From contig MEDY01000166.1 of the NCBI GenBank assembly GCA_001724265.1, positions 1-58,362 on the forward strand: a DNA stretch of 58,362 bases, given 5' to 3'. Within the stretch, counting starts at the first letter, position 1, and the number at the start of each line of letters is the position of its first letter. The translations under genes were made by a program, and so were the position numbers. The notes beneath the pieces are model-generated. The model searched no databases, was not told where the DNA came from, and was given only the letters and a program-made list of their open reading frames with translations. This DNA comes from Rhizaria sp. SCN 62-66 (taxonomy: Eukaryota). Of the stretch, positions 29,894 to 57,564 are shown piece after piece.

Positions 29894-31353
29894 GTGCGCT
29901 CGTTCCCAGGGTGAAGGAGGCCGGCTCTGCTGAAGGATGTGTGCTTTTTGTCCCGCTGATGAATGCTCCACTGTCAGTGGATGTCGACGTTGGTGTGTGC
30001 GATCGTTTCGTGTCAATCAGCTGAAATGTTGTGTTTCTGTTTAATGTCCCCTTCAGTGTTAATAGTGTCAATGATTCAGTATTCGTCTGTCTGTGTGTTA
30101 CTGCTACTTGTTTTGCGTGTGAGAAATTTGAAGAAATTTGCGACCTTTGAACGAACTCCAATGATAACTGAGTGGGTTCGCAAGACATGTTTATCTTGTC
30201 ACGACGCCTCTCCTACTTTCTAACTGATGCTTCCGGGAGTACCGGGAGACAAAAACGAACGATATTCGTCTCTTTTATAATATCAAATACAGTCCCATCA
30301 ATAATGTGGCAAATACTTACCTATACAGTTGCCAGTGGTTACGCGACACCGCTGCCGCTCCAACTGTGGTCTGTTGATGATGATGATGTTGAGAGGCAAA
30401 ACCACTGATAAGTCTGTTGCGTACAGCACAATCAATTGATCGTCAGCGGTAGTGTTACGTGAATATGTACTGTATATTAATGTCTTGGATAATTTATCTT
30501 ACTGAGATATATCCGCCGTCAGATTGGTTATTCACAACGCAATCGTTAAATATATCCAAGCTCAGCATGGATGGAGATGAGCTAGTCGCCGCCGAACACC
30601 TTGCTGAAGCAGTGCTAACGACGAGGATAATCAGAGGACGATTACTATAGCGATCGCAGCCGCAACGATGGCAACGGCAATGTCGAGGATTAGGACGAGG
30701 AATATCGCGACAATGACGATGACAGCGACAATAGTTATGTGACACACTCATTGAATGACACAATAAAATGTATTCATATATTTGGGAAACGGTAAACGTT
30801 CAAAAGACTCTCAAACTCAATAGTGTGGTACGATGCGTAGGTAGTCATGGTGTACCCTTGGAGATGTGGCACAGCCATGGCAATCACAAGGCACAATTCA
30901 CATGGGACTGCGAAATCAAAGCTGATATTGAAAAATCAAGGTGAATCCGTAAAGGAGTGTAATGTTCAATACCAAGTGCAACTTCCGCACTTGATTGGTG
31001 ATAATCGTGACAGCACGAAAGTTTTTTTAGACAAACGATCGGGCTATTGAGCTGTGGCACTAAAAACTAACATATTGAAACGACGTGTAAACATTAGGAA
31101 GAAAGAACTGAAAACTGTGGGAATTGTTGCTGTTGCTGTTTAAGAAACTAAGGATGTCTTGACATGTCTGCATCGACGGAAAAGTATACGAACACGGAAA
31201 TTAGGATGGCAAATAATGGTGTAAATAGCATTTTGATAATTGTTATGATAGTTGTTATGAATCATGTGAATGTTAATAATCAGCGAGTGAAATGTGTTCT
31301 TATCGGTGAAAGAAAACTCCCAAGTTGAAAACGACTGACAGATGTCGATGATG

Positions 31354-31407
31354 AACAAATACACTGCGTGCACAAAAGGTAACAAATACACTACATGCCC
31401 AAAAGGT
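31354..31407. repeat. 27-bp imperfect tandem duplication in AT-rich spacer
   Basis: aacaaatacactgcgtgcacaaaaggt followed directly by aacaaatacactacatgcccaaaaggt. Confidence 0.8.
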
Positions 31408-32185
31408 AACATCTATCGTGTGACGTTTGAATTGGTCACCACAGATAAAATGGGTTAAATTTAACACTAAAATATGAAAATAATTGTTTTGTGTCATAGG
31501 CTGAGTGACACTAACAAAACAAAGTAAAAACTGATTGACATGTAAGCTTAACATATTAATAGAAAAACATATATCATTGATCATCAAGAACATGATGAGT
31601 CTGAAATAAAACAATAACAGCTCTTTCTCACTCTCCATATTATTCCGATGCCTATATGATCAACTGCCGTGATCTCATGTCAGCGACGGCATCGCTATCG
31701 TTATTGATGTTACATTGCTGACGGGAGTTTGAGTGATATTGCTGTTTCGCATATTGAGCCAAGACGGACATATCTGGACAGCTACAGAGTCACATTCATC
31801 TTTAGTCGCACTGCTATAGTAACGGGAAAAAGAGGTCGTGAAAAGCAGCAGGGTCAAAATAAGAAGAAAAACACCCTCAAAAAGCATTAGCAACGTAAAA
31901 AAAAAAAATCAATAAACAACTGCATCGTCCACCAAAGACGGTGGCAATTTCATCTTAACGGACATTTCTTGAACGGTCGAGCTAAGAATTTGAACTCAAA
32001 TGCACCAAATAGTGCTGAGGATCGAATGTTCAGCTACTTCGCTCACACTCGCAGGCGCTTGCACAAGCACATTCACCTGCGCATGTACGCAGTAACGATT
32101 AGTAAGGCGATGTAGCTCTATACAGTCTAGATTAGCGGACTGTGACTCTTGAGTCGTTGAACCAAAGAGTCAGGCATTTAGACAC

Positions 32186-35100
32186 TTAGACGGCGGCCAT
32201 CTGAACCTCGCCGCGAGGCGTATCGTTGTGAGTGTGGCCGTTGTCGTGCATGTCGACGGGCTCGCCCGCGGCACCTTCAACGCCGACCTTGCCGCTCTTG
32301 CCGAAGCAGCACATCTTGTTGCAGTACGCGACAATGAACACGATGATCACGATGAGACCCACGCCACCAATCACCGTCGCGAGAATGATCGTCTCGGTGT
32401 AGTCCTTGCTGCCGCTGGCGTCGACGGACTCCGGCAGCCCGTCGCCCGCCTCGGCGGCGTCGTCGGCGATGCTGAGCCCGGCGCTCGCGTCGAGCGTCTT
32501 GTCTGCGCCGGAGTCGGCCATCGCCGTCGTGGTGCCTGCGAACGCGTCGCGCAGGTTGCGAAGCCCCGCGTACACGGTGGCGACACTGCCGCCGAAGCCA
32601 GAGACGGCCTGGGTGCGGAAACCGCGCTTGGCAGCAGCAGCAGAAGCAACGGACAGAGTCTTGAAATGAGCCTTGCTCTGCTGCATGTTGATCTTGTTTT
32701 GACGCTTGCTGTTGCGCGCGGTCGCACGCGCAGCCTTGCGCTCTGCCAGAACCTGAGTGCGCGCGGCTTGAACCTCAGCGAGAGTGAGCATTTCGCCCCT
32801 CTGGGCCGCGTCGGCCTTGACCTTGGACACGGCCGCAGACATCGCCTCGGCAGCCGACATCATCATCAGCGAGCGCGCCTTGCTGGTCAAGCCACCAGCG
32901 CCGCCGGCAGCAGGCGAGAAGCGGGTTGGCTGCGCAGGGCCGGTCAGAGACAGCGGGAAGATGTTGGTGGTGCCCAGCTGGAGGTCCTCAACAGCGGTGT
33001 TGTCCGCGGGGCGCGGGGTCATCCAGCCGATCGAGCATGAGTCCGCGTGGCTGATGTCGAGCTCGAGCTTGAACTTTTTGGCGGCGACGGACTTGACGCG
33101 CGCGGCAACCACAGTAAAGCTCATCTTCATCAGGTCGGTCAGCACGGCGCCCTCGCCCGCGACCCACTTGCCCAGCCCTGTGGTAACCGCAGCCGAGCTG
33201 AGGTCAGAGCTGGATGTAAGCCACTTCTCGGTCAGGCTGGTGCGGAGCGCTGAGAAGCCGATCGTGACATAGCGGCAGCGGCAGTCGGTCTCAGGCGAGA
33301 AACCGGGCTTGCACTTGCACTTGTCGCAGCTAGAGCTGACGGTGCCGCTGTTGTGGCAGACCTTGCTGCACTTCTCGCACGTCGCGCCAACCCAGCCGTT
33401 GGTGCACATGCAGGTGTCGCCGCAGACAACAGGATCCGTGCCGTTGCTGCGCGCGCCGTAGAAGCCGCTGTTTGCGCAGGCAGGCTTGCTGCCGTCAGCG
33501 TTGCAGTCGGCAACGGGCTTGTCGCAGCGCGCGCCAGTAAAAAGCATTGTGCCATTGATGTCAGACTTGCATTTACATGTCGCACGCTGCGTGAAAAAGT
33601 CCACAAAGCAGGCCGCGGCACCGCCAATGTTGCACTTGATCGTCTCGCAGGGACTAAACTCGCATGCAGTGCCAGAGTAATCACCGGGGCACTCGCAGAG
33701 CCCGGTGGCCTGGTTGCACGTAAAACCGTGGCAGTCGTCAGGACAGTGGCGCTCGAACGTGATGGTGTCGTTCGAGATCGAAACCATCTGGGGCTTCTTG
33801 GCGAGACTGAGCTGGTGCTTGTACGTCTTGCCCATCACGGCGGCCGGGATCGGCTTTTGCGGCGTGTAGTAATACCCGGCGGACGCCTCGTTATAGTTGG
33901 GCTCGTAGCGGTCGAGCACGATATCTGCGGTGTTGTTCTGGCTCAAGAGCGTTACGATCACAGTGTGCATGTTGTTGGGGCGCTGCGAGGAGGCGTACGC
34001 AGAGTCGAAGTAATAATCATCCTCCTCAGAGTCGTCCTCACTGGTGTAGTCATCGTAGTAGTTGACGTAATAGCGGAGAAATTGGTCGGAAACCCACATG
34101 TTTGTAGTCGAGTCGACGGTCACGTTGACCGACATGGTGCAGTTAACGCCGGCCCAGAGGCCCGCGCACTCGCAGCGCGTGCCGTACTTCGCCAGCCGGC
34201 CGATGCCGTCGGGACGCATGATGGGGACAGTAGTCGCGCCGTTGAGACACTTGGTCGCGGGGGAGGTGTACGTGCACTTGGTGAAGCTGGCGTTAGCAGG
34301 AACCGTGACATTGTGACGCAGGCAGACTGAATGGTCAAAGTAGAACTAAAAGTGGCGCGTGAAAAAAAAAAGGGAAGAAAATTGGTCGTCAGAATATAAT
34401 TGAAACAAATATAATGGCTCAAGATATACATAGAATTGATACAAATAAAAACACATAATTTTAACGTACATCACCGGCACTACTGATCTTGTTTGCAACA
34501 CAGTCGTAGTTCGAGAAACTCGACGACTCGAGCTCATATTGCTTCTTAGTGGGGCAATTGTTATTGGAGCTGAGGATAAACCTGAAAGACAAAAACGACG
34601 CTTCATCACTGCACTGTGGCAGCGAACACGTGTAACCGGATCCGCACAGCGCGTCAGGCACTTGTCGCCACAGTGTGCTACTGTAGCACTTGGCGGTCGT
34701 GGTCGCGTAGTCACCATTGGGTGTGCACGTGACAGCAGTATTGTTGGACATGCACTTGTCCGAGGTCGTAGAAACCAGGTAGCAGTCTCCGTTGTCGCGC
34801 TCGCACTGACGCACGCTTGCCGGCTTGTCCCCGTCCGCAGCGCACTTGCTGTCGGGAACGGGAAAGCTGCCGTTCTCGATGCACGCGACCTGGCGTGTCG
34901 TCGAGCTGTTGCGCTCGTGGCAACGGAACGTCTGGCACTGGGCGTAGCCGTACGTGCCGTTGTTTTTCGCGCAGCTGCGCCAGCTGCTCGAGGGGTCTGT
35001 TGGGTCGCGGCAGCGCCAGATGGGCGCGTTGCAGTAGGTGCCCACGGAGCACGCCTCCATGAGCACGGGCGCCGGCGCGGTCAGCAGGCACGGCGACACG

Positions 35101-35714
35101 TCGCGCACATAGTGGTTGGTGTTGTGTGTGAAGTATGCGGTCGTCGCAGTCACATTCTCCACATCAACAGCCTTAAGCGCGCAGCGCGCGGCGCGGTGCT
35201 TTTCGGCAGAGCCGCAGCTGGCGGCGCAGGCGATGTTCTCGAATGCGACAACAGTGTCGTCGCAGGAGGCCCAAGTAACCGAGCCGATATTGCTGTCGGA
35301 AGAGCCCAGGCGCGCGCACTGCCACTCAAAGCCGCCGGCGCATTTGTCGGCCGAGACGCAAAAGCGAGAAGTTTGTGGGCCGACTTCGGGACAGCCCGAA
35401 GTGAGGTCAGCGGTTGTGATTGAGGTCAACGATGCATTAACACAAAACAGCTTGCGCGAGGCAGTGCCGACTCCGCAGGGAGCTCCGGGGCAGGGAGACC
35501 AAGTTGAGTCGCTGTCGCAGGAAACGAGATTGAAAGATGTGTCTTCGTCATCATTTTCAAACGCGATATCAAGCGCCTCGGCATCTTCGTAAGTGAGACA
35601 GCGGCGTACAATCGTTACGTCGGAGTTTGCGAAGGCGAGGTAGACGAGTGTCGTGAACAATAGCGCGAGCGATCCTAAGAGTCGGCGCAACGCCGGCGTG
35701 GGAAGCGTCGGCAT
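32186..35714 (-). CDS. Type I membrane protein with thrombospondin type-1-like and EGF-like repeats, 1134 aa, 2 exons
   Basis: Exons 35714-34470 and 34345-32186 (intron 34346-34469, GTACGT...TTTAG). Signal peptide LLGSLALLFTTLVYLAFA. TSP1-like WSPCPGAPCGVGTASRKLFC, CAASCGSAEKHRAARC and TTRQVAC. EGF-like CECAGLWAGVNC, CECPGDYSGTAC and CMCTNGWVGATC. TM IILATVIGGVGLIVIIVFIVAYC with a short cytoplasmic tail. TAA stop. Confidence 0.85.
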
Positions 35715-36309
35715 TCTGAAAGGTACAAAAGGAAATATGCAAAAGAACAATCAACAGTTTGGTGAGAAACACACGGAAGAATATGCTGAAAAGAGGTCAG
35801 AAAAATTGGGCTCAACCAAGCCAAACGTCGGATCTCGGCATAATTCTCTCAGGCTTAGGTGGTATAAACGTCGACTAATTGAGAATCAGATAAAACGTCT
35901 GTGATTTACACGTAATTTGAATGGTCTGTAGCTCTGACATGTGATATCACTAAAGGATATAAAGTACTTGGCGATAAATAGTATGTTTCGGCGTGCGTTT
36001 GATCACCTCGACTCCAGAGAGATTTTCCAGCGAAGATTTCTCTATAAAATCTCCAAAGATGAGTTGTCTTCATTTGATACCTTAAACAAAACATCTTATT
36101 TCATCAAATTCAATTATAGGTACTCTGTTATCTCAGGTATCTATATCAAAATTTGGCCTGAAAAATGTGACCATGGATTCGCCTTTGTTATGATAACCGA
36201 CATTGTGCTTAACCACGGTAAGTGACCATGAACTGGATCGGACCACGGTCAAGTCATTTTTTGCCCCAAGATCACAATTTGGAGGACGGTGGCCTGGAAA
36301 CGAACAGTC

Positions 36310-36333
36310 TTAATATTAATATATTAATATTAA
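36310..36333. repeat. Perfect 24-bp AT palindrome
   Basis: ttaatattaatatattaatattaa equals its own reverse complement. Confidence 0.85.
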
Positions 36334-37160
36334 TTGATTCGACATGTACATGTACTTCATACTAGCTAGTTGTTACTAAACTAAATGTTTACATTTGCTA
36401 TTGCTCCATTTGCTATTGCAAGTAATAAAGTTGGAATCGCATGCGACGCCCAAAACATCGAATTTATCGAAGTGTAGAGCATAGATATTCAATAAGGATG
36501 AAATAATGTCATGTATAATAATTTAAAAAATTTATTATAGTAATATATTTGCAGTTTATTTTTTACTAAACATAAAAATATTAAATGCAAATGTACTTAC
36601 TATATTATCTACAAATAGTACTAAAAGTGTTTTTATTAAATTTATATGATTTCATACAAATTTTTACTTATTTATTACTCTTTTTTTTGCCCAATTGTCC
36701 AATCTTTGCAAGGACTCTTTTAACAAAGAAACTAGAAAAAAGCAATTACAGTACATACACTTTACTAAAAAAGAAGATTAAATCATTTTATACTGTTATA
36801 TATTTTTTATTTTAACCAAAAACTTGTTGCCATATATTTCAGTATTTTCTTTTAAATCTTAAATAAAAATCAATCAAATAATATATATACATTTATTAAA
36901 ACTATTTCATTTATATTGTAATATTAAATTGTAATTGTCATCTTTTAGATTTTTGATGATTGCTACCGACAAAGTGGGGCGATTACTCGAGAGCTGCGAG
37001 TTATCCAGCATGCATACAGTGTAGCATACAGTGTGTATCATAAATACTATTTGAAAACTCGCCATTTTGTTCAAATCGCACAAAATTACGCTTGGATTTG
37101 TGTTGGTTTGGTTAGGGATTGGTTCAAGGATGATTCTCGAAGCAGAACGGCAGGAATTGG

Positions 37161-37197
37161 TTTTAATCAAAAACATTGTATTGATTTTTGATTAAAA
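37161..37197. repeat. 13-bp perfect inverted repeat (hairpin, 11-nt loop) overlapping a short direct repeat
   Basis: ttttaatcaaaaa (37161-37173) pairs with tttttgattaaaa (37185-37197). aaaaacattgtattgat occurs twice nearby. Confidence 0.75.
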
Positions 37198-37272
37198 AAC
37201 ATTGTATTGATAAGTAATTATGGATTTATATAACGGTCTACATGCATAATATTAGTTGAGTTGATGATATTA

Positions 37273-39099
37273 TTAGTTCGCATCCTCTTTCGCAGTTTCA
37301 GCCTGCTTATTCTGCTCGCCGGAGAAATCAAAAGTCATCATGACAGGTTCCTCCTGTTCCTTAGCCTTCTTCTCCTGCTCCTCGAGCGCTTTCTCCGCGC
37401 TCTCCGCCTGCAAATCCACCTTCGTGGGACTCTCCTCAGCTTCAGCAGGAGCAGGCGCCTCCTCAGCTTCAGCAGGAGCAGGCGCTTCCGCCTTTGCCTC
37501 CTGAGTGGCAGCAGCGTCCTTGTCCTTCTTAGCAACGGCCGGAACGAGCTTGACCTCGGTCTTGTCGGCAGCCGCCTTCTCCTCGGCGATGCGCGAGACG
37601 ATGGGCAGGATGAGCGAGGTGGCCACGGCCGTGTCGCGCACGCTCGCGGGCTTGACGCGGTGCAGCTTCATCCCGATCTCGAAGTGGAAGACATTCTTGA
37701 CGACGCCATCGACGACCTCGAAGAGCTGGTACGTGCCGGACCACTGCGAGTACCCCGCCGGATTGTCCGGCGTGAGGCGCTTGAGGTCGTAGTACTCGTG
37801 CTGCGCGTTGCTCTCGGACATGGTGAGGTACGAGTAGAAGCGGATCTTGTCGGGTCCTGCGTAGGGCCCCACCACAGCCGCCTTGGTCGGCAGCAGCGCA
37901 GGCATCATCATCAGTGCGCCGCGGCGGCGGATCTTGAGCTTGCCGGGCGCGAACTTGCGCGGTGGGCGCTTGACGTCGAGCGAGAGTTCCTGGCGCGACT
38001 TTTCGTCCGGGATGTAGGACTTGGCGGCGGAGCAGTCCATGATGAGCACGCGGATGTCCCACTCGTCGAAGGCAAGCTCGGCCGGGTCCACGGCGTCCTG
38101 CACCATGAGCGGGTGCGGCAGCAGCGATTCCTCCTCGCTCTCAGGCGTCAGTCCGGCGCCGTCAGCAGAGGGCGAAAAGACCTTCTCGACGCGCGTGTCG
38201 TAGTGCGTCGCCAGGCGGTGCATGAGGCGCATGTCGGGCAGCGAGTGCATCACCAGCGCCGTGTCGTAGAAGTCGTTCATGGTCGGCGTGAGCATCGCGC
38301 CCAGCTCGCGGATGTCGCGCCAGCGGCCCAGCAGCGCCGAGTTGGGGAAAAGCACGATGAGCTCCACGAGCGACATCTCCTCGCGTCGCTCGCGCACGTA
38401 CAGCGCGTCGTAGGCCGCCGCCATCTCGGGTAGCAGCTGCAACTGGTAGGCGACCGTCATGCGCTCCATCAGCAACTCGCGCGCACGCGGCACGTCGAGC
38501 GCACCGACCTGGGCCGCCGAGAGGTCCAGCATGCCCCACACGGCCGTCTGCGCCTTGGTCAGCACGGGCGAGCGCGCGCCCTCGGAGACGATGGGCGCGA
38601 ACTTGCGCACCGTGAATGTGTCGAACCACTTGGCGAGCTTGAGGCGCAGGCGGCCGTCGAGCGTCTCGAGCACCTCGGTGGTGAGCGAGGTGATCTGCTG
38701 CTCCAGACTCGTCTCCAGCGCGGTCAGCTCAGACTTGCGCAGGTTCGTCAGAGACATCTCGATCATCGCCTCAGCGTCCTCCACGGGCATCGACATCACG
38801 TCATAGCCGGCTCCTGCGGCGGCAGCCTCAGCGGCGGTGTTTGTCGTCGAGGCGCCCGCAGCGGCGCTGCTGGTCGCGGCGGCGGACGAGGACTCGGGCT
38901 TTTTCTTGAGCTCGATGGGGGCCTTGAGGGCGCGCGCGGCAACGAACTCGGAGAGACTCTTCTCAGTTTCAGCGTCGAAGCTGGCGACCTCATTCTGAAC
39001 CTCAGCAATGTACTTGCGGCGCAGGTAGGTCACAAGGCCCGCGAGGGCCACACCGCTGGCGATCACTGCGGTACGGACACTGACTCCAGAGGACTCCAT
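37273..39099 (-). CDS. Hypothetical protein with N-terminal membrane anchor and acidic Ala/Glu tail, 608 aa
   Basis: Intronless ORF with strong GC3 bias. N-terminus MESSGVSVRTAVIASGVALAGLVTYLRRKY is a TM segment flanked by basic residues. Ends TAA TAA. No family recognised. Confidence 0.8.
   Translation of the reverse strand: MESSGVSVRTAVIASGVALAGLVTYLRRKYIAEVQNEVASFDAETEKSLSEFVAARALKAPIELKKKPESSSAAATSSAAAGASTTNTAAEAAAAGAGYDVMSMPVEDAEAMIEMSLTNLRKSELTALETSLEQQITSLTTEVLETLDGRLRLKLAKWFDTFTVRKFAPIVSEGARSPVLTKAQTAVWGMLDLSAAQVGALDVPRARELLMERMTVAYQLQLLPEMAAAYDALYVRERREEMSLVELIVLFPNSALLGRWRDIRELGAMLTPTMNDFYDTALVMHSLPDMRLMHRLATHYDTRVEKVFSPSADGAGLTPESEEESLLPHPLMVQDAVDPAELAFDEWDIRVLIMDCSAAKSYIPDEKSRQELSLDVKRPPRKFAPGKLKIRRRGALMMMPALLPTKAAVVGPYAGPDKIRFYSYLTMSESNAQHEYYDLKRLTPDNPAGYSQWSGTYQLFEVVDGVVKNVFHFEIGMKLHRVKPASVRDTAVATSLILPIVSRIAEEKAAADKTEVKLVPAVAKKDKDAAATQEAKAEAPAPAEAEEAPAPAEAEESPTKVDLQAESAEKALEEQEKKAKEQEEPVMMTFDFSGEQNKQAETAKEDAN
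37432..37485. repeat. Exact 27-bp coding tandem repeat (APAPAEAEE x2)
   Basis: ctcctcagcttcagcaggagcaggcgc twice in tandem. Confidence 0.9.
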
Positions 39100-39729
39100 G
39101 TCTGCGCACAAGGGTAGGGTGAAAGAAAATCAAGAAGATAAAGACAGGATAGCATGTAAAAAATCAAAGATATAAGTGCGCATGCTACCGGACTGCGTAT
39201 ATGACGCAGTGTTCGCATTATGCTGGCGCCGAAGAGCCGCGTCCCTATTGTCCGCCCAGACCACTTCACGAGAGCATCGCGCAACAGGATCAACACTGAT
39301 CGAAGCAGGAAAAGGCGTTGAAATAATTTGAAGTATAAAATATCACAGGATTATACGAGCATAGCGGCAGATGGACGAATTCCCTGTTTCAAGGCGCTTT
39401 CTTGAAAACGCCGGACGGTTCTTTGCCGACAGACCCACCAGCCGTTCCCTGCGCAACAAAGCAGTCACTGGAGAAAACTAGTTTCGTCACATTTTATCAA
39501 TGCAAATAAAGTCACACAAGAGATCTATCGCATCACATTGTTTAACTAGTAATGATATATGTATTTTCTAACTTGATAATTTACTAAGTCTCAGACTGCG
39601 CAGTGTGAATGCTCACATTTCTGCGCGGGTTGCTATGTATCGTTGCGCTCTCAAATGATATGAGCGCATCATTTGGTCTCTGTAAGCCGCAGAAGGCACA
39701 CCACGCGGCCTACAGCAAGCGTGCGGCAT

Positions 39730-42492
39730 TCATTGGCGCGCGCTCGCGCTGCCGTTGCGACTACTACTGTTCCTGTCGCGGTCATCACGGTCACGGCTAC
39801 GGTCGCGGCGCGGGGAGCGGGACCGTGGGCGCTGGCGCTCGCGCCGTGGCGGCGACTGCGAGCGCGAGCGCGAGAGCGAGCGCTCGCGGCGGCGCGGCGG
39901 GGCGCTGCGCTCACGGTCACGGTCACTGAGCCCACGGTCACTGCGGTCACGGCTGCGGTCACGGCTACGGTCAGCGTGGCCACGGTCGCTGCGGTCCCTG
40001 ACTTTGCGCTCACGGCTACGTTCACGGTCATGGCGGTCGCGGTCGTTGCGGTCGCGTTTACTGTCACGGCCATGGTCGCGGCTACGACTGCGGCTACGGC
40101 TACGACTACTCCGGCGACGGGCCCTGTCCCTGTCTCTGCTCCTGTCCCTGCTCCCGCTCCTGTTGCTGCTCGTGTTGCTGCTCCTGTCCTTGTCGCCGTT
40201 CCTGCTCGACTGCGGCTTGCTGCCGCTGCCACTGCTGACACGGCCCCAGGACGACGTGTGGTCGCGGTGCTCACGGCCACTCGCGCGCTCACGGTCACTC
40301 AAACGGTCACGGTCACTAAAGCGGTCACTCGCCGCGCCGCCACCGCTTGATTTGCGCTCGAAGCCGCTCGCCTTGCTCCACACCGCGCCGCCGTCGCGCT
40401 CACGGTCACTAGAGCGCTCACGGTCGCGGCCACGGTCGCTGGGGCGGCCGCGGCCGCTGCTGCTGCTGGTGCGGGCCTGGGGCCCCCACTGCGTCTGCAG
40501 CGGCCCCTGCGTCTGCTGCTGCCGCTGCTGCTGCAGCAGCTGCTCGACGATGCGCTCGCGACCCGGATGCAGCCGGAACCAGTGCAACGGTGCCGCCATG
40601 CTCCCAGCGCTCTCTGCGGCGGCGCGGTCCGCGGCGAGCGCGCGCGCGAAGGCGCCGAGGTCGGCCGCGGAGGGGTCGCGTAGCAGCGCCACCGAGTGGC
40701 ACGGGTCCGACGGCCTGAAGAAGCGGCTCCGCGCGCGCACGCACGACGAGTCCTCGGACGACTCCGAGTGCGAGTGGATGGGCGAGTGCGCCGCCGCCGA
40801 GTCCGCGGCCGAGTTGTCGTCGTCGTCCTCGTCGTCGTCGTTGCGCCGGCCGTCCACATAGGCGCACGTGAAAAGGCGTGCAAACGACGCGTGCTCCTGC
40901 TCACGGTCACGCGCGCGGTCACGCTCACGGTCACGACCACTGCCACGGCCACTGCGCTCCCGGTCACTGCGACTGCTGCGCTCACGGTCACGCGCACTGT
41001 GAGTGTCCCGGCCGCCGTCGTTGCGCTCGCTGCCGTTGCACTCAAGCGGGAAGGCGAAGACGAAGAAGGTGACGTGCGAGTACCGCAGCCGCGCCACGAA
41101 TGGCACCTCGGCCCAGTCCACCGCGCGCTCGCCACTGCCGCCGTCGCTGTTGTCGCCGCCACTGTCGCCCTGCACGGCGGCGGCCATGAGCGGCAGCACG
41201 ACCGAGTGCTCGTCGACGTTGTTGGGGCACTTAATCACGACGACGCGGCACCGGCGCCGGCTGGGGCCGCGGCAGCGGGTGGCGGGGCGGCGGACAGCGT
41301 CGGCAGCGGCCGCGTCGGTATCTGCGTCTTTGTCATTGTCAGCATCCCGCATCTGCGCCTGCACCTGCGAGTCCTGCGCCTGCGACTGCGCGTCGAGTGA
41401 GTCCGCCGAGTCCACTGAGTCCCCGGCCCCCTGTTCGCCCTCGCTCTCCCGGCGGACGGCCAGTGCGAGCTCGCCCGCGCCCAGCGCGCCCAGGCGCAGC
41501 GCAACCGCGCGCTGGAAGCGGTACTCGGGGCCGCCCCAGGGGGGGTCTGCGAACACGGCGTCGGAGCCGCGCGCGAGGCGCCGCAGCAGCGCGCCGCCGA
41601 AGCCGCCCTCGAACGCGACCACGGGCGCGTTGCCGGAGACAGAGCCGGAGCCGGAGCCGGAGCCAGCGGCAGAGCTCGAGGAAGAGAGGGCGGCGCGCGC
41701 GTCGGTGGTCTGCAGCGCCGCGTCGGTGGCGTCCGAGTCGGCGGCAGGGTCCGCGACGACGACGGGGACGCCGAAGAGCGCGAGGTTGTGGCACAGCATG
41801 CGGAAGCGCCGCGGGTCGATCTCGACGCCGTTGACGCGTGACACGTAGCGCAGGCCCGCGCGCGCAAACGAGAGCGTGTTGCCGCCCACGCACGACGTGG
41901 CGTCCGTGATCACAAAGCCCGCGGACGCAGAGGACGAGGGCGCGGACTCAGAGGAGCTGGAGCTGGAGCTGGAGAGGGGCGAAGCGCGCGGCGCGACCAG
42001 GTGCTGCGGCGCGCACAGGGCAGAGGATGACTAGCTTTTGTCGTCGTCAGCGTTGTTGTCCCTGGTGCGGCAGAGGAGCTTGACGACGAGGTTCGTGATG
42101 TCGTCTGCGTTAGCTTGGTCAGAGACCGAGTACTTGGCCTCCTCGTCCATGAGCAGCGCCTCGCGCTGCGCCGCGCTGGCCTTGCCCCAGAGGTGCTAAG
42201 ACTTGGTCCCCACAGCCAGCTCGTCTTTCAGCAGGCGCGCCGAGATGGGGTGGCACTCCCAGAGAAGGCCGTGCAGGTGCGCGGCGGCGCGCTCGGCGTC
42301 GGCGGGCGAGCGCAGCGAGACGCGGCACAGTTGCCGGCTCAGCCCCGTCTCGCGGTCGCGCAGGATCTCCACCCTGTGGATCACCACGCCACCGGGCACC
42401 GTCTGCACCACCGCTTCAACGTCAGACTCCGTCGCCGTCGGCGGGATGTTGCGCAGGGTCAGCTTGTACTCGACGTACTGGCCGCCGCTCAT
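39730..42492 (-). CDS. RRM + RNA cap guanine-N2 methyltransferase (Tgs-like) + RS/RD-rich domain, 920 aa, containing two in-frame TAG codons
   Basis: One continuous frame from ATG 42492 to TGA 39730 if TAG at 42198-42196 and 42033-42031 are sense. RRM: KLTLRNIPPTATESDV...ILRDRETGLSRQLCRVSL...AERAAAHLHG. Tgs motifs: MDEEAKYSVSD (between the two TAGs), ITDATSCVGGNTLSFA, VNGVEIDP, VFADPPWGGPEY and IKCPNN. C-terminal RS/RD dipeptide repeats. Confidence 0.85.
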
Positions 42493-43423
42493 GACACTCC
42501 CTGTCACTGTTGGGATAGTGTTGAGATGAAGATGATTGGAGAGGATAGAAAACATTGCGTGAAATTTAATTAAATGAGAACAGTTTAAAACTAATATTAT
42601 AACTAAATCAAACGCATAAAGTTCGAACCACTGAACAGGTGTTGCAGTGGGCTCGTCTAATTTTCCGCAGATTTCCTCGCCTTCTTTGTGGCTGGACAGC
42701 CACAAACGCTGAAACGCGAAGGTCAGTGTAAATCCATTGATATCAAGGGTATTTTGGGCTTAGTCTTGACTTATCTCGACTATTTCCCTATGTAATGCGT
42801 GTTTATAGTAGTGAAATCTTTTTTTAAAGTCTTTTGGTGAGGTTCATGAGTATACATTTGATTTGCTTGCCTCACGCATTGCACATGTGACGCTGCTGAG
42901 ACACCAAGAGCCGTTCTGCAAGTACATGTACACAGCAGAGATACAACATCATAAGACACAGCAGAGCGCAAATAACGTGAATAAGCAATGTCATTGTGTA
43001 TTATTCACTCGAGCAGCTAATAATACATTGTATCAGCACAAGCAGCCACGGTGACTGCGTGCGACACGGAGAGAAAAAGTGAGAGACCAACGAGTGATGA
43101 ACAGACAGACATAGAATTAATACCAAAAGACAAAGGAACTACAGACGTTGCTTTTCGGTTGGCTAGCCCATTAGCTGGCTAGGACAATGAATGTACGAAC
43201 AATAGACAGACACGGAGACACGTACGTACACATGCAATGGTGAGAGTTTAGGTAAATAGCGCAATGCAAAATATCGAACAAAGAGTTGACAAAAGCACAT
43301 GAGAAAAGAAAAATAGACGGATACACACTAAATTAATATAACCAATAATGGCCAAATAACAACGAACTTAACATATAATTACGACTCAGCCTGATGCGCT
43401 TCCCTATTGTCAAGCTTGCCAGT

Positions 43424-46082
43424 TTACCAGGGCCCAGTGAGCTCGTTGGTGACCATGATGGCAATAAAAGCGAGGTAGAAGCCAACCATTGCAAGTCCGT
43501 AGGTACGCGGCGGCTTGTAGCTCCAGGCCCAGAAGGCTACCATGTGCGCGAGAACGCCGGCCGAGACGGCACCCCACGTGATGACGACCTGCTGCGTCAC
43601 CGCGAAGGTCACGGGCGTGGGGAACTGCTGGAGACACGTGAGAAGCATGGGCGCGCCCAGCCCCACGAGCGTGGTGAGCAGTGGCGACGCGAAGACGGAT
43701 GCGAAGGCCAGCTGCGCGTGCCCCGCGCGCGCCAGCGCCGTGTTGGCGACGAAGTCGGGGATGGAGTTGCCGACGGCGAGCACGGTGAGGCCCAGGATCG
43801 CGGTCGACACGTCGAGCACGACGCCGACGGCCTGCAGCGCGGCGACGACCTCGTTCGAGATGAGCACCATCCAGGCGACGCAGCCGCCGAAGGTGAGCAG
43901 CGCGCAGAAGGTCTTAAAGGCCACGGCCACGCGCGGCAGCCAGTCGTCGTCCTCCAGCTCCGCCTCGGCCTCGGCCACGGCCGCCGAGACGGAGGCCGAC
44001 GCCGCGGCCGCGCCCATCGAGGACGCGGCCGCGGTCGCCGCCGTCAGCTCCGAGTCGTGCCGGCGCCCGCGCCCCAGCCCGTTACCGTTACCGTTGTGTC
44101 CGTGGCCGTGGGAGCCCTGGAGCGAGCCAGCCGCACCGGGCAGCGCGCCCGCAGCGCCGGCGCCGGCGAGGCCGTGTCCGTGGCCGCTGCTGCTAACCGC
44201 GGAGCGCGCGACGAGCTCGGTGAGCGCGCGGTCATACGCGCGGGCGACGGCGGGCAGCAGCCAGCAGTAGTAGACGAGCGCCATGAGCACCGCGACGACG
44301 GCGCCGCCCAGAGCGGCCACGGCGGCGCGCGGCAGCCCGCCCAGCGCGGGCGTGGCCAGGTCGTCGCCGTCGAAGGCCAGCATTGCGAGCAGCGAGAGCG
44401 GGACCGGCGCGCAGAGCCCCAGCAGGCGCTTGGCGGGACCCCAGAGGTCGGGCCGCACGTGCATCGACGGCAGCGTGAGCCACCGCAGCAGCGAGAAGGG
44501 CAGCTCGAAGGCGAACTGGAGCTTGAAAAAGGCGCGCGCGGCGGGCGCGGCCTCAGCCCAGGAAGGGTGTGGGTACGAGAGGCCCGCGAGGAAGGTGGCG
44601 TGGTCAATGCCGTCGTCCTCCTCCTCGACGTAGTCCTCCTCCTCGTCCGCGGCCGCGGCCGCGCCCAGGCTGCCCACCGCAGGGCCGCCGTCGCTGGCGC
44701 CGCTGGCGCCGAGGGGCCCGTCGTCGGTGCCGTCGGAGAGCAGCAGCGCGGCGCGGAGTGACTCGCCGCGCCGCAGCTCGCGGCGGTGCGTCGCAACCGA
44801 CACGCCGCGCGCGCGGGCGGCGTCGCGCTCGGCGCGGGACTTGCGGCAGCGCTTGATCTGGATAACGACCACGACGGCGGCGACGTAGGCCACGTAGAGC
44901 ACAAGCAGCGAGCCCGCCTCATAGGCGTTGACGCGCCCGTTGTGGAAGGTCCAGAAGACGGTGCCGAGCGAGACGGCGTAGGCGAGGATGTCGCGCCAGA
45001 AGCCGCTCTTGTTGAGCTTGCCCGTGGACACGGCAATGGTGGTGCCCGCAACAAGCCCCATGATGCAGACGCCCGCGCCAATGATGGCACCCAGTAGCAG
45101 CGGCACGTCGTCTGCGGCCAGCGCGGCCAGCGCGGAGAAGATGTCCGGCGCGCCGTTGCCGAAAGCCAGGAAGGTCATGCCTGCGACCGAGGGTGAGAGG
45201 TTGAGCAGGCGCGACATGACCGTGAGCGCGGGCACGAAGAAGTGGTCCGCCGTGGTGGCCAGCAGCGAGAGCGTGACGAGCAGCACGAGCAGCATGATGC
45301 CCACGAAGCCGGCCGTCGCGGCGGGGCTGCGTCCGTTGGCCAGCACGCAGTAGCGCAGCTTGAGGAAGTTCACCAGGTTCTCCGTCTCGCAGTGCTGCCG
45401 CACAAACAGACACGGGTCCTCCTTGTGGTCGATAAACTCGCACGGAACCTCGTCGTCGTCATTGTCGTCGTCAGCAGCGCCGGCGGCGTCAGCGGCGTCG
45501 CTGGCGCTGGCGGTGCGGAAGCCGACGGAGGCCTGCTTGACGTGGCCGCCGATGTTCTTCTTGTTCTTCTGGCCCTGCTTCAGGCCGTGGGGCGCCGCGG
45601 CGCTGCCGCTGGCCAGCGCGAGGGGGCTGAACTCGAGTCCGCGCGGCGTGAGCGGCTCCTGCGCCGCCTCGAAGCGGCCGACGACGAGCCCGGCGACGGC
45701 GCTCAACAGCGTCGGCCGCGGGGCGCGCTGCACGGAGCGCGGCGAGAGCGAGAAGCCCGCGCCAACGCGGCCAAACATGCCCGTGTAGGCCAGCAGCGCG
45801 ACCAAGCACAGCACGGCCGCCGCGCTCGTCGCTGAAAAGTGCGAGAGATATGCGAGTGGCGAGCGACGGGAGGAGTGGGTGGTCGACAGAAAATATGAAT
45901 TTAACAAGGACGAGCTTACGATAACGATATTTAAGTTGTAAAAACTCATCAAAACATTGACAGAAACACAAAATCTCAACATAAATCTCTTTCAAAGAAC
46001 ATTGTAGAGCTGGGAGACGATGCCGAATCGTACCTCGGAAGATGGAAGGAGACTTTCTCTTGGCGCCTAGAATTGGCGACAT
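43424..46082 (-). CDS. Cation/Ca2+ exchanger (CCX / NCLX-NCKX6 type), 818 aa, 2 exons
   Basis: Exons 46082-46034 and 45831-43424 (intron 45832-46033). Alpha-1 repeat AGMTFLAFGNGAPDIFS, alpha-2 repeat LGLTVLAVGNSIPDFVAN, TADHFFVPAL, the N-terminal Cys motif C.FVRQHC...NFLKLRYC, and multiple TM helices. TAA stop. Confidence 0.9.
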
Positions 46083-46495: not shown

Positions 46496-49400
46496 TCAGC
46501 CGTAGATGCGGTGGATGTTCTCGAGCGTGAGCTTGCGGCGGCACTTGGGGCACTCCTTGCGCAGCGCCACCGCGCGCCGAATACACGAGTTGCAAAACAA
46601 GTGGCCGCAGCTAGATTGCGCGAGTTGCATGAGTTCAACAGGAGGCACAGGAGGGAAAGGATGTGTGAGCCAGAGAAACTAGAGATATGGGATAAAATAA
46701 TGCAAATATAGACAAGAAAAGCATACAAATAACAAATAAGCAAATCTATCGCACGCATTTTCAACATCACAAAAGAAACAAATGACGATGAATATATCCC
46801 TAGTTGGCAGCGTACCTGGTGGTGCTGATGTCCTCGACGCAGCTCAGACACACGGCGCACTCGAGGCGGCGGCGCATCTGGTCCAGCACCGTCCCGTTGT
46901 CAGCGGGCTCCTCGCCCTCGTCGCCGTCGCCGTTGCTGTTGCTGTTGCTGCTGCTGCTGCCAAGGCCGCTTCCGGCGGCGGCGGCAGCGGCGACGGCGGC
47001 GGCGGCGGCGGCTGCGGCGTTGGCGACATCCGCGCGCACGCCGTTGACAACGATGGGCTGCGCATGCGGCAAAACAACCTCGGACGCCTCCAGCACGTCG
47101 TCATCGTCATCGTCGTCAGCGATGGTGGAGGAAGCGAAGCCGACGGACGGCATGCCGCGCCTGCTCCTCGCAGCAGCAGCAGCGGCAGCGGGGTTCGCCG
47201 GCCGCCGCGCCCCCGGGCCCGCGCCGACCGCGGCGCCAGAGCTGACGCCGAGGCCGGCGCCAAGGCCGGCGCTGGCCGCGTTGCGCCGGCGCGAGGCAGC
47301 CCCCTGCGGCTGCGGCCCCAGCTCCTGGCCCTGCTCCTGGCCCTGGCCGCGGAGGTCCCTGGCGACGAGCGCGCCGCCCTCAGTGAGCGCTAGGGGACCC
47401 GCGTAGTCGAGCGGCAGGCCCAGCGCGTGCATGCGCAGCCGCCGCTCCCCCACGCTCTCGCCAGCGAGGCCGCTGGCGTCGAGGGCGCCGGCCACGAGGC
47501 GCGGGGCCTGCCGGGGCGGCAGCAACTGTGATTGGAGCTGTGGGTGGGACTGGGAAGAGAGCTGCTGCGCTGCAAGCGCGCGCTGCACCGACTGGTACAC
47601 GCTCAGGGGCGACGCGAGGCCGGGGCCGCTGCCGCCGCCGCCGCTGCTGCTGCTGCTGCTGTTGCTGTTGTTATTGTTATTGTCGCCCCCAGCAGCAGCA
47701 GCAGCAGCAGCTGTCGTCTGAGCATTCGCGTCAACGCTACTGCTGTTGCTGTTGCTGCTGCTGCTGCGGCCGTGCTCAGCAAGCGACGCGATCAGCATCG
47801 CGCGCGTCGCTGCAGCCGCCGCCGCCGCCTCAGCCTCGGCCGCCGCGGCCGCATCTGTCCCAGCGCCCGCGCCCGCGCCCGCGCCCGCGTTGGCGCCCCC
47901 GGAAGCGCGAGCTGTGCTGGCGGGCAGGTCTGGCATAAGGCGCCACTCAGGCTCGCCGGGCCGCCGGCCAAAGTAGCCCGCCGGGAGCGGCCGCGGGGAC
48001 GGCCCCTGCTGCGGGGCAGCTAAGCCGTCCGCACCGACCGCGTCCGCAGCACCTGCCGCGTCTGCCTCGCCGTCGCCGTCGCCGCCGTCGTCGCCGCCGT
48101 CGTCGCCGTCATCGTCGTCCGAGTCGTCGACCTCGATGGGGCAGTCCGCGCTGGTAACGGGGAAGCGCGCCCGCGAGAGCGTCCTGCGCGCGGTGAGGCG
48201 GCCCGCGTAGTCAGTCAGCGCGGCTTCGAGCCCGCGCACGCGCTGCAGGTACGCGGCGCCGATGGCCTTGAGCGAGTCCAGCGGCAGCTCCGCGCGCAGC
48301 CGCGGCGGCAGGAACAGCGGCAACAGCGACGCCGGCGGCGGCTGCGACGCCTGCGGCAGCGGCGGCGGCGGCGGCGAGGCCAGCAGCGGCAGCGCCGCGC
48401 CGGGCGTCGCCGTCAGCTGCGGCTGCGCCTCGTAATAGGCCAGCAGCGACTCCACCGACTGCGCCGACTGCAGCGACTGCGGAGGCAGCGACGCCTGCAG
48501 CTGCGAGGGGGCGGGGGCGGGGTACATGTGGGGCAGCGTCGAGTAGATGGGCACCAGCAGGTCGCGGCCATGCGGGGGCTGAAAGCCGTGGCCGTGGATG
48601 TGGCCGTGGAGGTGACCGTGAGCGGAAGCAGCAGCCGAGTGAGCGTAATGGTGATGATGATGCTGTAGCTGCTGCTGCTGCAGCTGTTGGCGCTGCTGCT
48701 GCAGCTGCCGCTGGCGGGGCGCCGCGACGACCGTCTCCGTGATCACCAAGTCGTCGTCGTCGTCGTCGTCGCCGGTGAAAGTCGCACGCGCGTGGACGGG
48801 CGGAGCGTCGGCCGGGACCGGGCCGGCGGCAGGGCGGGCGTCGTCGTCGGTGCTAGATGAGGAAACGTTGTCCCCCGTTGGCTTATCCGAGCCCTGACGC
48901 TGCTGCTGCTGCTGCTGCTGCCTGTCGTAGTGCTGCTGCCGCAGCTGCAGCGCGCGCGCCACAGCATCGCCGAAGGGGACCCCGGTCCCGGCCCCAGCGC
49001 CAGCAGCGGCGTCTGATTCCGAGTCCGCCTCCGCCTCCGCGGCGGCGGCGGCGGCGGCCGCGGTGCGCTGCCCTCGCTGTCGCTGCTGCTCGAGCATGAG
49101 CTGCCGCCGCTGCCGCTGCAGCTCCTGCTGCTGCTGCTGCTCCAGCTAGCGCTCGCGCTCGCGGACCTCGGCGGGGGCGTCTTCCAGCTGCGGCGGCCCC
49201 TCGTCGTCGAGATTGTCGTCAAGGTCACCGCCGGCATTGTCGGTGTCGTAGCCGTCGTCACTGCTCCCATTCGCAGCAGGGGCGGCGGCGGCGCTGGCGG
49301 CACCAGGCTCGGCCGCAACACCCGCACCCGCACCCGCACTCACACCCGCAGCGGCAGCGGCAGTGGCAGCGGCAGCGGCAGCGGCAGCGGCGGCTGTGAG

Positions 49401-49733
49401 AGCCTGAGCGTTTGAATCGCTCCGGGCTGCGTCGCTTGCGGCGCCATGAGGCATTGTCGCCGCACCTGCGACACTCGCATCGGCAGACGCGTCGGCAGAC
49501 GCATTGGCAGCTGCGGAGGCGGCCGCAGAGGCATCTGAGGCTGGGGGCACTGAATCGGCGGCCAAGACCGAGTCCGTCATCAGCACACCTGCCACCGCAC
49601 TCGCGGTCTCAGCAGCGGCGTCAGCAGTGTCAGCGGACGACGGCGGCAGCGGCGGCGGCAGCGGCGGCGAGTTGCAGTTGTGTGCTGCAACAGCCGGGCC
49701 CGGCGCGGGGGCGTCGGCAGAGAGCTCCGACAT
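46496..49733 (-). CDS. C-terminal C3HC4 RING E3 ligase, RNF4/STUbL-like, 1010 aa, 2 exons, one in-frame TAG
   Basis: Exons 49733-46816 (TAG at 49148-49146) and 46610-46496. Intron 46611-46815 (GTACGC...TAG) splits the RING: CAVCLSCVEDISTTS|CGHLFCNSCIRRAVALRKECPKCRRKLTLENIHRIYG, TGA stop. SIM-like hydrophobic/acidic patches DDDDLVITETVV and CPIEVDDSDDD. Confidence 0.82.
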
Positions 49734-55300: not shown

Positions 55301-57564
55301 CCAGTGGCGGTGACTCGGCGTGGAGCGCAGCTTGGCGCGACCACGGGCCCGAGCCCGAGCCCGGCGCGCTAGCGCTGCTGCACGGCGCCGGCGGCCACGG
55401 CGGCCGCGCGGCCGCCGAGGACGCGCAGGCCGCGTCGGCCTCGGCAGCCGCGACCGCGCTGAGCGCTGTCGCGAGCGGCGGCGGCGGCGAGCTGGTGCCG
55501 GGCCTCGGCGCGCTGACGCCTGCGCTCTGCGCGCGCGCAGCGGCCCTCGCCCGCGCCCACTTCCGCTCTCCCCCCGTCTAGCAGCAGGCCGGCGCCGCTG
55601 CCACTGAGAGCGGCGCGGTGGCCGCTGCTGCGACAACGGAGCGCGCTGTGGTAGCGCTTGTGTCGGACCCCGCCGCGCTGGCCGACGCGCTCTGCACCGC
55701 GGCCTTCGACCCCGCGGCCGCGCTCGCCAGCATCGCCAAAGATCAGGACAGCGGCAACAGCAACAATAACGCGGTGTCCGTGGCTGCGGCGGCGACCCGC
55801 GCGCGCGCGCTGCGGCGGCGGCTGACGGAGTCGCTGCTGCGCGAGCTGCAGCACAGCGCGCTGGGGGCCGACGGCGCGCCCGACGACAACCTCAACGCGC
55901 TGGGGCTGGGCATCGGGCTCGCGGGCCAGGGCCGCGGGCTCTCGGACCCCGCTGCCGTGGCCTCGGTGCTGCTCGCGCACCTGGCCGCGCTGCGCGGCGC
56001 CGCGGCCGCCGGGCCCGGGGGGTTGCGCGCGTCGCTCGACTCGGGCCACTTCGCGTGCTCGTTATCCCTGCTCCACCCCACCAGCAAGCGCAGCAACGAT
56101 GGCGATAACGGCAACGCCACGTCTGCTGCGGCGGTCGTGGTGCGCGTGCCGCCGCTGCCGACGCGGCTGGAGCACCTGCGCGCGCTGGCGCAGTGCTCGC
56201 CGCTGCTGGTCTCCGCGCTGGAGCCCTCGGAGCGGGCCGCGTACGCGACGCAGCTGCTGCCGCCGCTTCTGCGGCTGGCGACGCACCAGGACTACCTGGT
56301 CCGCGCGCCCGCGCTGCACGGCGCCGCGCTGCTGTGCGCGCTGCTGGGCCCGGCGCTGGCCCCCGCCACAGGCCGCGCCGCGCTCGAGGCGCTGCTGGCG
56401 GCGCTGCTGCGCACCTGTGACGGCGACTGGGTCTCGGGCGTGGCTGCGGCGCGCTACGGCGTGCGCGGCTGGGTCGGCGCCGACGTCGTCGTGCAGCTCG
56501 ACCTCGTCAACAGCGCCATCGCGCGCGCGCAGCGGGGCGAGCGGCACGGCGGCAGCGGCCGCAGCGCTGTCAGGGGCGGCCGTGGCTCTGGCGAGGACGA
56601 CGCTGACGCCGTCGCGGTCCGGGCCGAGGCCCCCGCAGTGGCCGCCCGGTTCGGAGTGCCGCTTTCGGCCCTCGCGGGCGTCAGGCTCACTGGACTCGGC
56701 GCCGACTCCGACTCCGACTCTGAAGCCGAGACTAACACTGACACGGACGCCGAGTCTGTGCGCGCGATCGACGCCGTTCTGGCGCGCGCCGCCGCCGAGA
56801 ACGACTACTTCGTCCCGAACATGAGTGTTAAGACCAGCATTCACGACTCTGTCGCTGTGCCGCCGTCGAATGCGCCGCTGGCGGTGCGCGCTGCGGCGGC
56901 GCGACGCGCGCTGCGGCGGCAGGCCTGGGCGGTGCGCGCGCGCGAGCGGGCCACCGCCGTTGCCAAGGGGCTGGCCGAGGCCTCGCGGGACGACGCGCTG
57001 CTCCGCGCTGATATCCTCTCGCAGCGCGCAGTCGCGCAGCAGCAGGCTCAGCAGCAGCCGTTGCAGGCGCCGTCCGCGGACTCGATCGCGGAACAGCTGC
57101 GGCGGCTCGAGGTCGCGCAGCAGCTGGGCTCCGGCGCGGGCGGCGCGGCGGGCGCGGACGCCGACGAGAAGCGCGTGCTGGCGCTCCTGCAGGACAGTAA
57201 GGAGACGCGCGAGCGCGACGCCGCGGCCGTGCTGGGCGACCTAGAGCTCTCGCCGCAGCGCCGGCGCCTGCTGCTGGCCGTGGTTGCGGCCGAGGTCGAG
57301 GCCACGCGGCTGCTGCTTGCGCGCGCGGTCACGGTGCTGCTGACGCTGTGCGGGCTGGAGCCGGAGCTGCTGCGCGGCATCGCCGACGCGCAGACGCTCG
57401 ACGCGCTGCAGACGCTGCCGGGCGATGTCGGCAACCGCGGTGGGATTCCAGCCAAATCAAAGGGCGCGTTCGTGCTGGGCGAGGTGTCGCGCTTCGTGGA
57501 CACCGTGCTGAGGGCTGTGGACGAGTTTTTTGCCGAAGGGGACGATGATGAGGACAATCTCTAA
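50497..57564 (+). CDS. Large Ala-rich helical (HEAT/ARM-like) protein of unknown function, 2355 aa, one in-frame TAG
   Basis: ORFs 50497-55581 and 55618-57564 are in the same frame with unchanged coding-type composition across TAG 55579-55581 (GTC TAG CAG CAG GCC). HEAT-like segment LLPPLLRLATHQDYLVRAPALHGAALLCALL. TAA stop followed by AT-rich 3' sequence. Confidence 0.75.

Follow-up and report, generated by a model that had tools for sequence, protein, structure and literature searches.

An RRM–methyltransferase gene with two in-frame TAG codons

Contig MEDY01000166.1 (58,362 nucleotides, the whole of which we call the window) carries on its minus strand a gene whose predicted product is an RRM fused to a TGS1-like S-adenosylmethionine (SAM) methyltransferase, for which we infer a cap guanine-N2-type substrate, followed by a tail rich in Arg-Ser and Arg-Asp repeats (RS/RD). 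The frame opens with an ATG at 42492 and closes with a TGA at 39732-39730, so that the coding sequence occupies 42492..39733. AT-rich spacers border the gene at 39275-39703 and 42486-43507, and its GC content at third codon positions (GC3) is 0.86. Two TAG codons interrupt this frame, and the meaning of UAG in the organism is our subject here. The gene and its parts are as follows:

39730..42492, minus strand: whole gene, 920 codons plus the TGA stop, with RRM, TGS1-like methyltransferase and RS/RD-rich tail
42226..42459, minus strand: RRM domain, residues 12-89, placed by Pfam RRM_1, PDB and homologue alignment
42196..42198, minus strand: TAG at codon 99, next base C, inside the motif K-[RK]-D-[FY]-L-F
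42043..42207, minus strand: conserved N-terminal methyltransferase extension, residues 96-150, including LMDEEAKYSVSDQANADDIT, placed by alignments, profile and model
42031..42033, minus strand: TAG at codon 154, next base T, polymorphic (AAG, Lys, in one strain)
41917..42042, minus strand: variable linker rich in Ser, Ala and Pro, residues 151-192, between the N-terminal motif and motif I
41056..41916, minus strand: methyltransferase core, residues 193-479, placed by Pfam PF09445, human TGS1 in the PDB and BLASTP to P0033
39733..41037, minus strand: low-complexity tail rich in Arg, Ser, Asp and Glu, residues about 486-920, read from the translation

The RRM matches RRM_1 (PF00076) over residues 12-75 with 22.4 bits, above the gathering cut-off of 20.7 (E=1.2e-4). 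It also matches the RRM of TRMT2A in the PDB (7ntn, E=0.004) and can be aligned with the RRMs of the homologues P0021, P0033, P0037 and P0066. The core matches Methyltransf_15 (PF09445) over residues 195-330 with 34.6 bits, where the cut-off is 22 (E=1.7e-8). It contains both the SAM-binding motif I and the PPWGGP motif of the family: ITDATSCVGGN and DPPWGGPEY align with VVDAFCGVGGN and SPPWGGPDY of human TGS1, in columns that are invariant in the family alignments. VVIKCPNNVD and PFVARLRYSHVTFF are further motifs of the core, with long low-complexity insertions in between. Among solved structures human TGS1 (3EGI/3GDH) is the best relative by sequence, and a Foldseek search also returned it as the top match, but a weak one (E=7e-3, TM 0.38/0.46). 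The tail, rich in RD, RS and RE, has comparable counterparts in P0033 and P0021.

Between the two TAGs, and ahead of motif I, lies the motif of the N-terminal extension characteristic of the TGS1 family. The initial annotation had placed a Tgs-family motif here, and the motif is real: a profile of 16 family members matches human TGS1 (3egi/3gdh) with E=4.8e-28 and puts LMDEEAKYSVSDQANADDIT on the motif of the human N-terminal extension. In the AlphaFold2 model this extension has a mean predicted local distance difference test (pLDDT) score of 83-92 in every block of ten residues over positions 11-60 of the model. The window gene thus resembles human TGS1 (PDB 3GDH/3EGI) in motif I (xxDAxxxVGGN), in PPWGGP and in an N-terminal extension of the 'LDxEgxFSVTPE' type, whereas direct identity between the two proteins is low (E=1.6e-5). 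Compared with the human enzyme, the gene falls in a separate subfamily, marked by the N-terminal motif K-R-D-F-L-F...R..L.LD.EA.YSVTDQ.TAD and an RRM in front, and it differs further in its long low-complexity insertions, its RS/RD tail and its two TAGs. In distant homologues the subfamily motif, again ahead of motif I, reads K-[RK]-D-[FY]-L-F...R..L.LD.EA.YSVTDQ.TAD.I.

Four proteins (P0033, P0021, P0007 and P0152) have the domain order and motifs of the window gene at 25-35% identity. Oomycete proteins named 'trimethylguanosine synthase' (P0004, P0005 and P0008) share the motifs at 30-36% identity and lack the RRM. The open reading frames (ORFs) of all seven are uninterrupted. No relative above about 40% identity was present among the 9 matches of a protein search, the best 80 of 294 relatives on metagenome contigs or the 748 matches in a library of 1.84 billion proteins, and inspection of the GC-rich loci L058, L034 and L060 found no close relative among these. 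None of the relatives in these collections is near enough for a dN/dS comparison. The gene defines a widespread, little-studied family of proteins that combine an RRM, a TGS-like domain and an RS tail. The KRDFLF...YSVTDQ subfamily is common on large metagenome contigs of 61-295 kb (L002, L009, L065, L074 and others), which may be giant-virus genomes. At several short or smaller loci (for example L003, L006, L015, L016, L039 and L047), the protein seems to begin right at the motif.

Read with the standard code, the gene is cut at codons 99 and 154. Re-reading the sequence bore out what had been reported of the frame, including the quoted peptide strings: its 920 codons contain exactly two stops, both TAG, with no TAA, TGA or frame break. 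Codon 99 (TKS[TAG]HLW) occupies a single ungapped column in the first part of the conserved N-terminal motif. Of 35 distinct homologues, 25 have Asp in this column (33 of the 44 aligned rows); Leu and Asn occur twice each, and Glu, Ser, Met, Lys, Thr and Gly once each; the RRM-bearing relatives have Glu (P0007), Ala (P0033) and Thr (P0021). Codon 154 falls at the end of a predicted N-terminal helix, where the variable linker starts. At the linker, homologues that carry the RRM contain an insertion of differing length, and pLDDT in the model is low. The 40 codons before and the 40 after each TAG have a GC3 of 0.85-0.90, and the stretch between them (HLWGKASAAQREALLMDEEAKYSVSDQANADDITNLVVKLL...) retains the codon bias of the gene. 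All 21 invariant residues of the 16-sequence alignment that lie downstream of codon 99 are intact, 17 of them past codon 154, which argues against an old pseudogene.

Several lines of evidence indicate that the parts on either side of the TAGs belong to one protein. Uninterrupted homologues in which RRM, N-terminal motif, linker and methyltransferase follow one another include P0021, P0033, P0037, P0066, P0077, P0106, P0131, P0007 and P0152, the last being KAG2486549.1 from the green alga Edaphochlamys debaryana, the only organism that cluster look-ups named. P0033 aligns with residues 65-479 of the window gene in a single BLASTP segment that runs over both TAGs (E=1e-26), pairing VVIKCPNNVD with VLKCPNNAD and PFVARLRYSHVTFF with PFVARIRLSHMTYYF, and its own tail is also rich in RD and RS. 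Since such homologues exist and the gene offers no usable internal ATG, both TAGs must be decoded for the enzyme to be made, as the initial annotation had proposed. A division into two separate genes was rejected, since a second gene would lack a start: the stretch from codon 99 to the motif contains no ATG, and the first one past codon 154 encodes M234, already within the catalytic domain.

Two ways of splicing around the codons were considered and rejected. A single intron of 183 nt over both TAGs (GTGGGG...CTAG) would remove the conserved motif and is neither AT-rich nor of the GTAC type. An intron from GTACTC at codon 120 to the second TAG at codon 154 would put the frame out of register, with an early TGA as the result, and would lose the YSVSDQ motif; at 103 nt, it is the sole GTAC...YAG pair near the TAGs of the gene. 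The introns of the window are AT-rich islands (see below), and the window has no such island near 42031 or 42198, or near the two further coding TAGs at 49148 and 55579 described in the next section; the TAGs are therefore not intronic.

TAG in other DNA and across the window, and polyA RNA of the gene

Both TAGs recur in other DNA. A contig from another study (X3) has no differences from the window over 41448-42526, both TAGs included, and a 151-nt contig (X6), which is probably DNA, covers codon 154 with the TAG unchanged. In X4, a contig over 41780-42346 has one difference only, A to T at 42033 on the plus strand, so that codon 154 reads AAG (Lys) instead of TAG; codon 99 remains TAG in this strain. 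The protein pieces left by gene callers that cut at the TAGs, of 98/119, 39 and 727 amino acids, occur on 5, 5 and 5 contigs. The end of a second, low-depth X4 contig has 8 mismatches in 42 bases of the conserved methyltransferase core (41810-41851) and could derive from a paralogue or from a more distant relative living in the same community.

A polyA metatranscriptome (X5) contains contigs without differences from the gene in the tail (39817-40129 and 40270-40530) and in the methyltransferase core (41181-41459). These three contigs lie downstream of the TAGs. Because these polyA contigs are identical to the gene and depth falls to zero in the flanking spacers, the gene looks transcribed. The X5 joints listed across the region were discarded as evidence of splicing, their sides being only 21-28 letters long and placed at repeats, as expected of artefacts.

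TAG is also found in coding sequence elsewhere in the window. The gene set comprises 12 gene models from 14 exon blocks, with 15,142 confident in-frame codons; TAG occurs four times in these, TAA and TGA not at all, and the four are spread over three of the 12 models. Two of them lie outside the methyltransferase gene:

49146..49148, minus strand: third coding TAG, in the RING-finger gene (...EVRERER[TAG]LEQQQQQ...), next base C, GC3 0.85 and 0.95 on its two sides
55579..55581, plus strand: fourth coding TAG, codon 1695 of 2355 of an Ala-rich gene (...RSPPV[TAG]QQAG...), next base C, GC3 0.90 and 0.80 on its two sides

Pfam gave no match for either of the two proteins, and the two sites have no homologues. 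Taken together, the four sites have GC3 of 0.80-0.95 on both sides. Two further TAGs in frame, at 34348 and 46802, were dropped as evidence, lying in AT-rich intergenic or intron sequence. Among the 11 genes with a defined end, a small sample, TAA is the terminator of eight, TGA of three and TAG of none. TAA is thus the dominant terminator despite a GC3 of about 0.85 in the genes.

Probable translation of UAG and competing explanations

The most economical account of these data is that UAG is translated, because the standard code would truncate three of 12 neighbouring gene models of a compact genome that have no other lesion. Codon bias, the conserved methyltransferase residues and the stability of the TAGs over strains, studies and a decade of samples favour the same account. 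TAG is probably translated in the organism of the window, and the data suggest that the organism no longer uses it as a stop. As part of this explanation, it appears rather likely that the gene is intact and expressed, in a GC-rich, intron-poor eukaryote of bioreactor and wastewater communities. UAG would have lost its stop function, or kept only a poor one, leaving termination to UAA, as the dominant stop, and UGA. It would now be a very rare sense codon, regained by point mutation and mostly at tolerant sites, and ribosomes could read it through a tRNA with a CUA anticodon, or a near-cognate tRNA, combined with weakened recognition by eRF1.

The leading candidates for the amino acid are Glu, Gln and Lys. 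Codon 99 points toward an acidic residue, its column being mostly Asp, with Glu in the RRM-bearing P0007, and a single substitution separates GAG from TAG. Glu would likewise fit the ERERER[TAG]LE context in the RING-finger gene. Lys or Gln would suit the AAG variant at codon 154 together with the Gln-rich surroundings of the other two TAG sites. No site but codon 99 falls in a conserved column, and four sites are too few to decide the residue.

A number of observations weigh against translation of UAG. None of the listed X5 contigs spans 42031-42033 or 42196-42198, and depth is 0 at 42033; a scan of the 58-kb window returned no tRNA genes. The absence of TAG from 11 gene ends is weakly significant, with p about 0.08 if TAG were as frequent as TGA. 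Within coding sequence, TAG occurs 4 times where positional base frequencies predict about 143, a depletion of about 36-fold that places it below the rarest ordinary codon, ATA (5), and below TTA (9), and three of the four sites lie in low-complexity or variable sequence. The resulting density is about 0.26 per 1000 codons, whereas the genes of the rhizarian exLh, a case of UAG reassignment, have several UAGs each (PMC5304391). With the codon usage of the window, 71% of single-base nonsense paths lead to TAG, so that the finding of only TAG is uninformative (p=0.26 for four TAGs in four under random nonsense mutation), and the TAG/AAG polymorphism at codon 154 also fits a segregating nonsense allele. 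Finally, the bases after the four coding TAGs are C, T, C and C. With pyrimidines at 36.5% of first codon positions, this gives p=0.018, post hoc and with n=4, and it is the pattern that would be expected from competition with a still-active release factor. A purine follows 10 of the 11 true stops, and a purine is the preferred context after eukaryotic stop codons (PMC9272376).

The pyrimidine context, the purines after true stops and the depletion in frame all lend weight to an account in which UAG is a weak stop with partial readthrough by near-cognate tRNAs or a low-level suppressor, making the code ambiguous and context-dependent. We consider this unlikely: with two TAGs in series within a single gene the losses would compound, none of the 11 gene ends is a TAG and the four sites have no known readthrough motif in common; the context test, moreover, was made post hoc on four sites. 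The initial annotation had taken the two TAGs to speak against leaky readthrough, an argument that the bases following coding TAGs and true stops leave weaker than stated. Its case against a pseudogene is strengthened by the 21 intact invariant residues, whereas the lack of TAA and TGA, on which it relied, carries little weight given how readily nonsense mutation produces TAG here. It is quite improbable, in our estimate, that the standard code applies and the gene is a recent pseudogene or the TAGs are segregating nonsense alleles (from GAG or a GAC-like codon and from AAG), with only the 98-residue RRM made. TGS1 is dispensable in some organisms, and the mutational bias toward TAG, the AAG of the other strain and the failure of the listed polyA contigs to span the TAGs are consistent with such alleles. 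However, premature TAGs would be needed in three of 12 models within 58 kb, yet 15,142 codons contain no frameshift, TAA or TGA. Codon bias and invariant residues are preserved downstream, the TAG at codon 99 is common to strains and to samples of different studies from 2015 to 2025, and downstream parts of the gene are found in polyA RNA.

Loss or alteration of the TAGs in the RNA, through editing or non-canonical splicing ahead of translation, or an error of consensus or assembly, would be compatible with the lack of an RNA contig over the TAGs. We hold it to be very improbable: independent assemblies concur at both TAGs, the sole candidate of the GTAC...YAG type shifts the frame and drops YSVSDQ, real introns are AT-rich islands of which there are none here, and codon 99 exactly fills a conserved column. 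We therefore rank translation of UAG first, an ambiguous, context-dependent state second, recent nonsense alleles third and RNA-level removal, editing or assembly error last. Described initially as the strongest single-locus evidence for reassignment, the gene is good evidence, though not decisive.

In a more specific form, which we put forward tentatively and regard as doubtful, translation of UAG would reflect an early or ambiguous UAG-only change from stop to sense in an undescribed, very GC-rich, uncultured eukaryote of wastewater reactors. UAG would have gone from gene ends and be returning within genes at about 0.3 per 1000 codons, only before a pyrimidine, where the release factor competes least. 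Such a genome would have been caught naturally at the step called 'ambiguous intermediate' or 'codon capture', with a composition opposite to that of most known stop-reassigning lineages.

UAG-only nuclear reassignments are, to our knowledge, known from a handful of lineages only. PMC5304391 describes two, the rhizarian exLh, where UAG encodes Leu, and Iotanema spirale, where it encodes Gln; both keep UAA as the dominant stop, and UAG is common in exLh (384 in 71 genes). Phyllopharyngean ciliates likewise have a UAG-only stop-to-sense code, with in-frame UAG while UAA is the main terminator (PMC11687900). The window resembles exLh and Iotanema in having in-frame UAG within coding sequence and UAA as the main terminator (PMC5304391), and its genome stands apart from UAG-only codes in being very GC-rich (GC3 about 0.85). 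A search of literature full texts, supplementary files excluded, found no report of a wastewater eukaryote that is GC-rich and reads UAG as sense. If UAG is indeed translated, the window would add a further UAG-only stop-to-sense case, of independent origin, in a GC-rich eukaryote that does not look like a ciliate, and with two unusual traits: its GC content is extreme, and it uses UAG very little and possibly in restricted contexts only. Codons so rare and seemingly context-dependent could reveal the first steps of stop-codon reassignment. There is also a consequence for annotation: gene callers already cut this gene at TAG into pieces of 98, 39 and 727 amino acids, and metagenomic eukaryotes of this kind need the right code.

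Neighbouring genes and introns of the window

Very GC-rich coding blocks (GC3 about 0.8-0.9) alternate with AT-rich spacers along the 58 kb. Its genes are eukaryotic and include those for a DnaJ-TPR protein, a WD40 protein, an ATP-dependent DNA ligase, a Na/Ca exchanger and a RING finger. Searches with these genes gave few leads to their affinity: the DnaJ-TPR protein has a JGI match of 69% identity (P0014), a scan of genome contigs yielded two bacterial J-domain matches, the Na/Ca exchanger matched a fish protein only, and the ESM Atlas assignment goes no further than Eukaryota. Near-identical DNA is present in bioreactor, wastewater and activated-sludge runs from several studies, dated 2015 to 2025. 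Two AT-rich stretches without long ORFs, 29933-32206 (GC 0.41) and 35694-37380 (GC 0.33), far exceed the other spacers in length.

Spliceosomal-type introns occur in the window, and three are recognisable. They measure 184-205 nt, have about 40% GC, and all begin with GTAC... at the 5' end and finish with YAG at the 3' end:

13616-13799, 184 nt, plus strand: intron that joins DNA ligase exons in frame
15987-16175, 189 nt, plus strand: second intron of that DNA ligase gene, its exons likewise joined in frame
46611-46815, 205 nt, minus strand: intron whose removal restores a canonical C3HC4 RING finger

The ATP-dependent DNA ligase gene (12537-27213, plus strand) contains the first two of these AT-rich introns. 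Past the second it continues in frame into an exon of 3,677 codons, giving a protein of about 4,770 amino acids; this giant exon has a weak DNA_ligase_A_C match at its start, and the remaining ~3,500 residues are without a Pfam match. In the RING-finger gene (46498-49733, minus strand), the 205-nt intron splits the C3HC4 finger. The apparent in-frame TAG at 46802 lies inside this intron and is noncoding, and the true stop is the TGA at 46498-46496. The WD40 gene (9331-10926, minus strand) has an AT-rich island at 10225-10373 (GC 0.42) within its open frame; this could represent an intron that keeps the frame, or else a linker of low GC.

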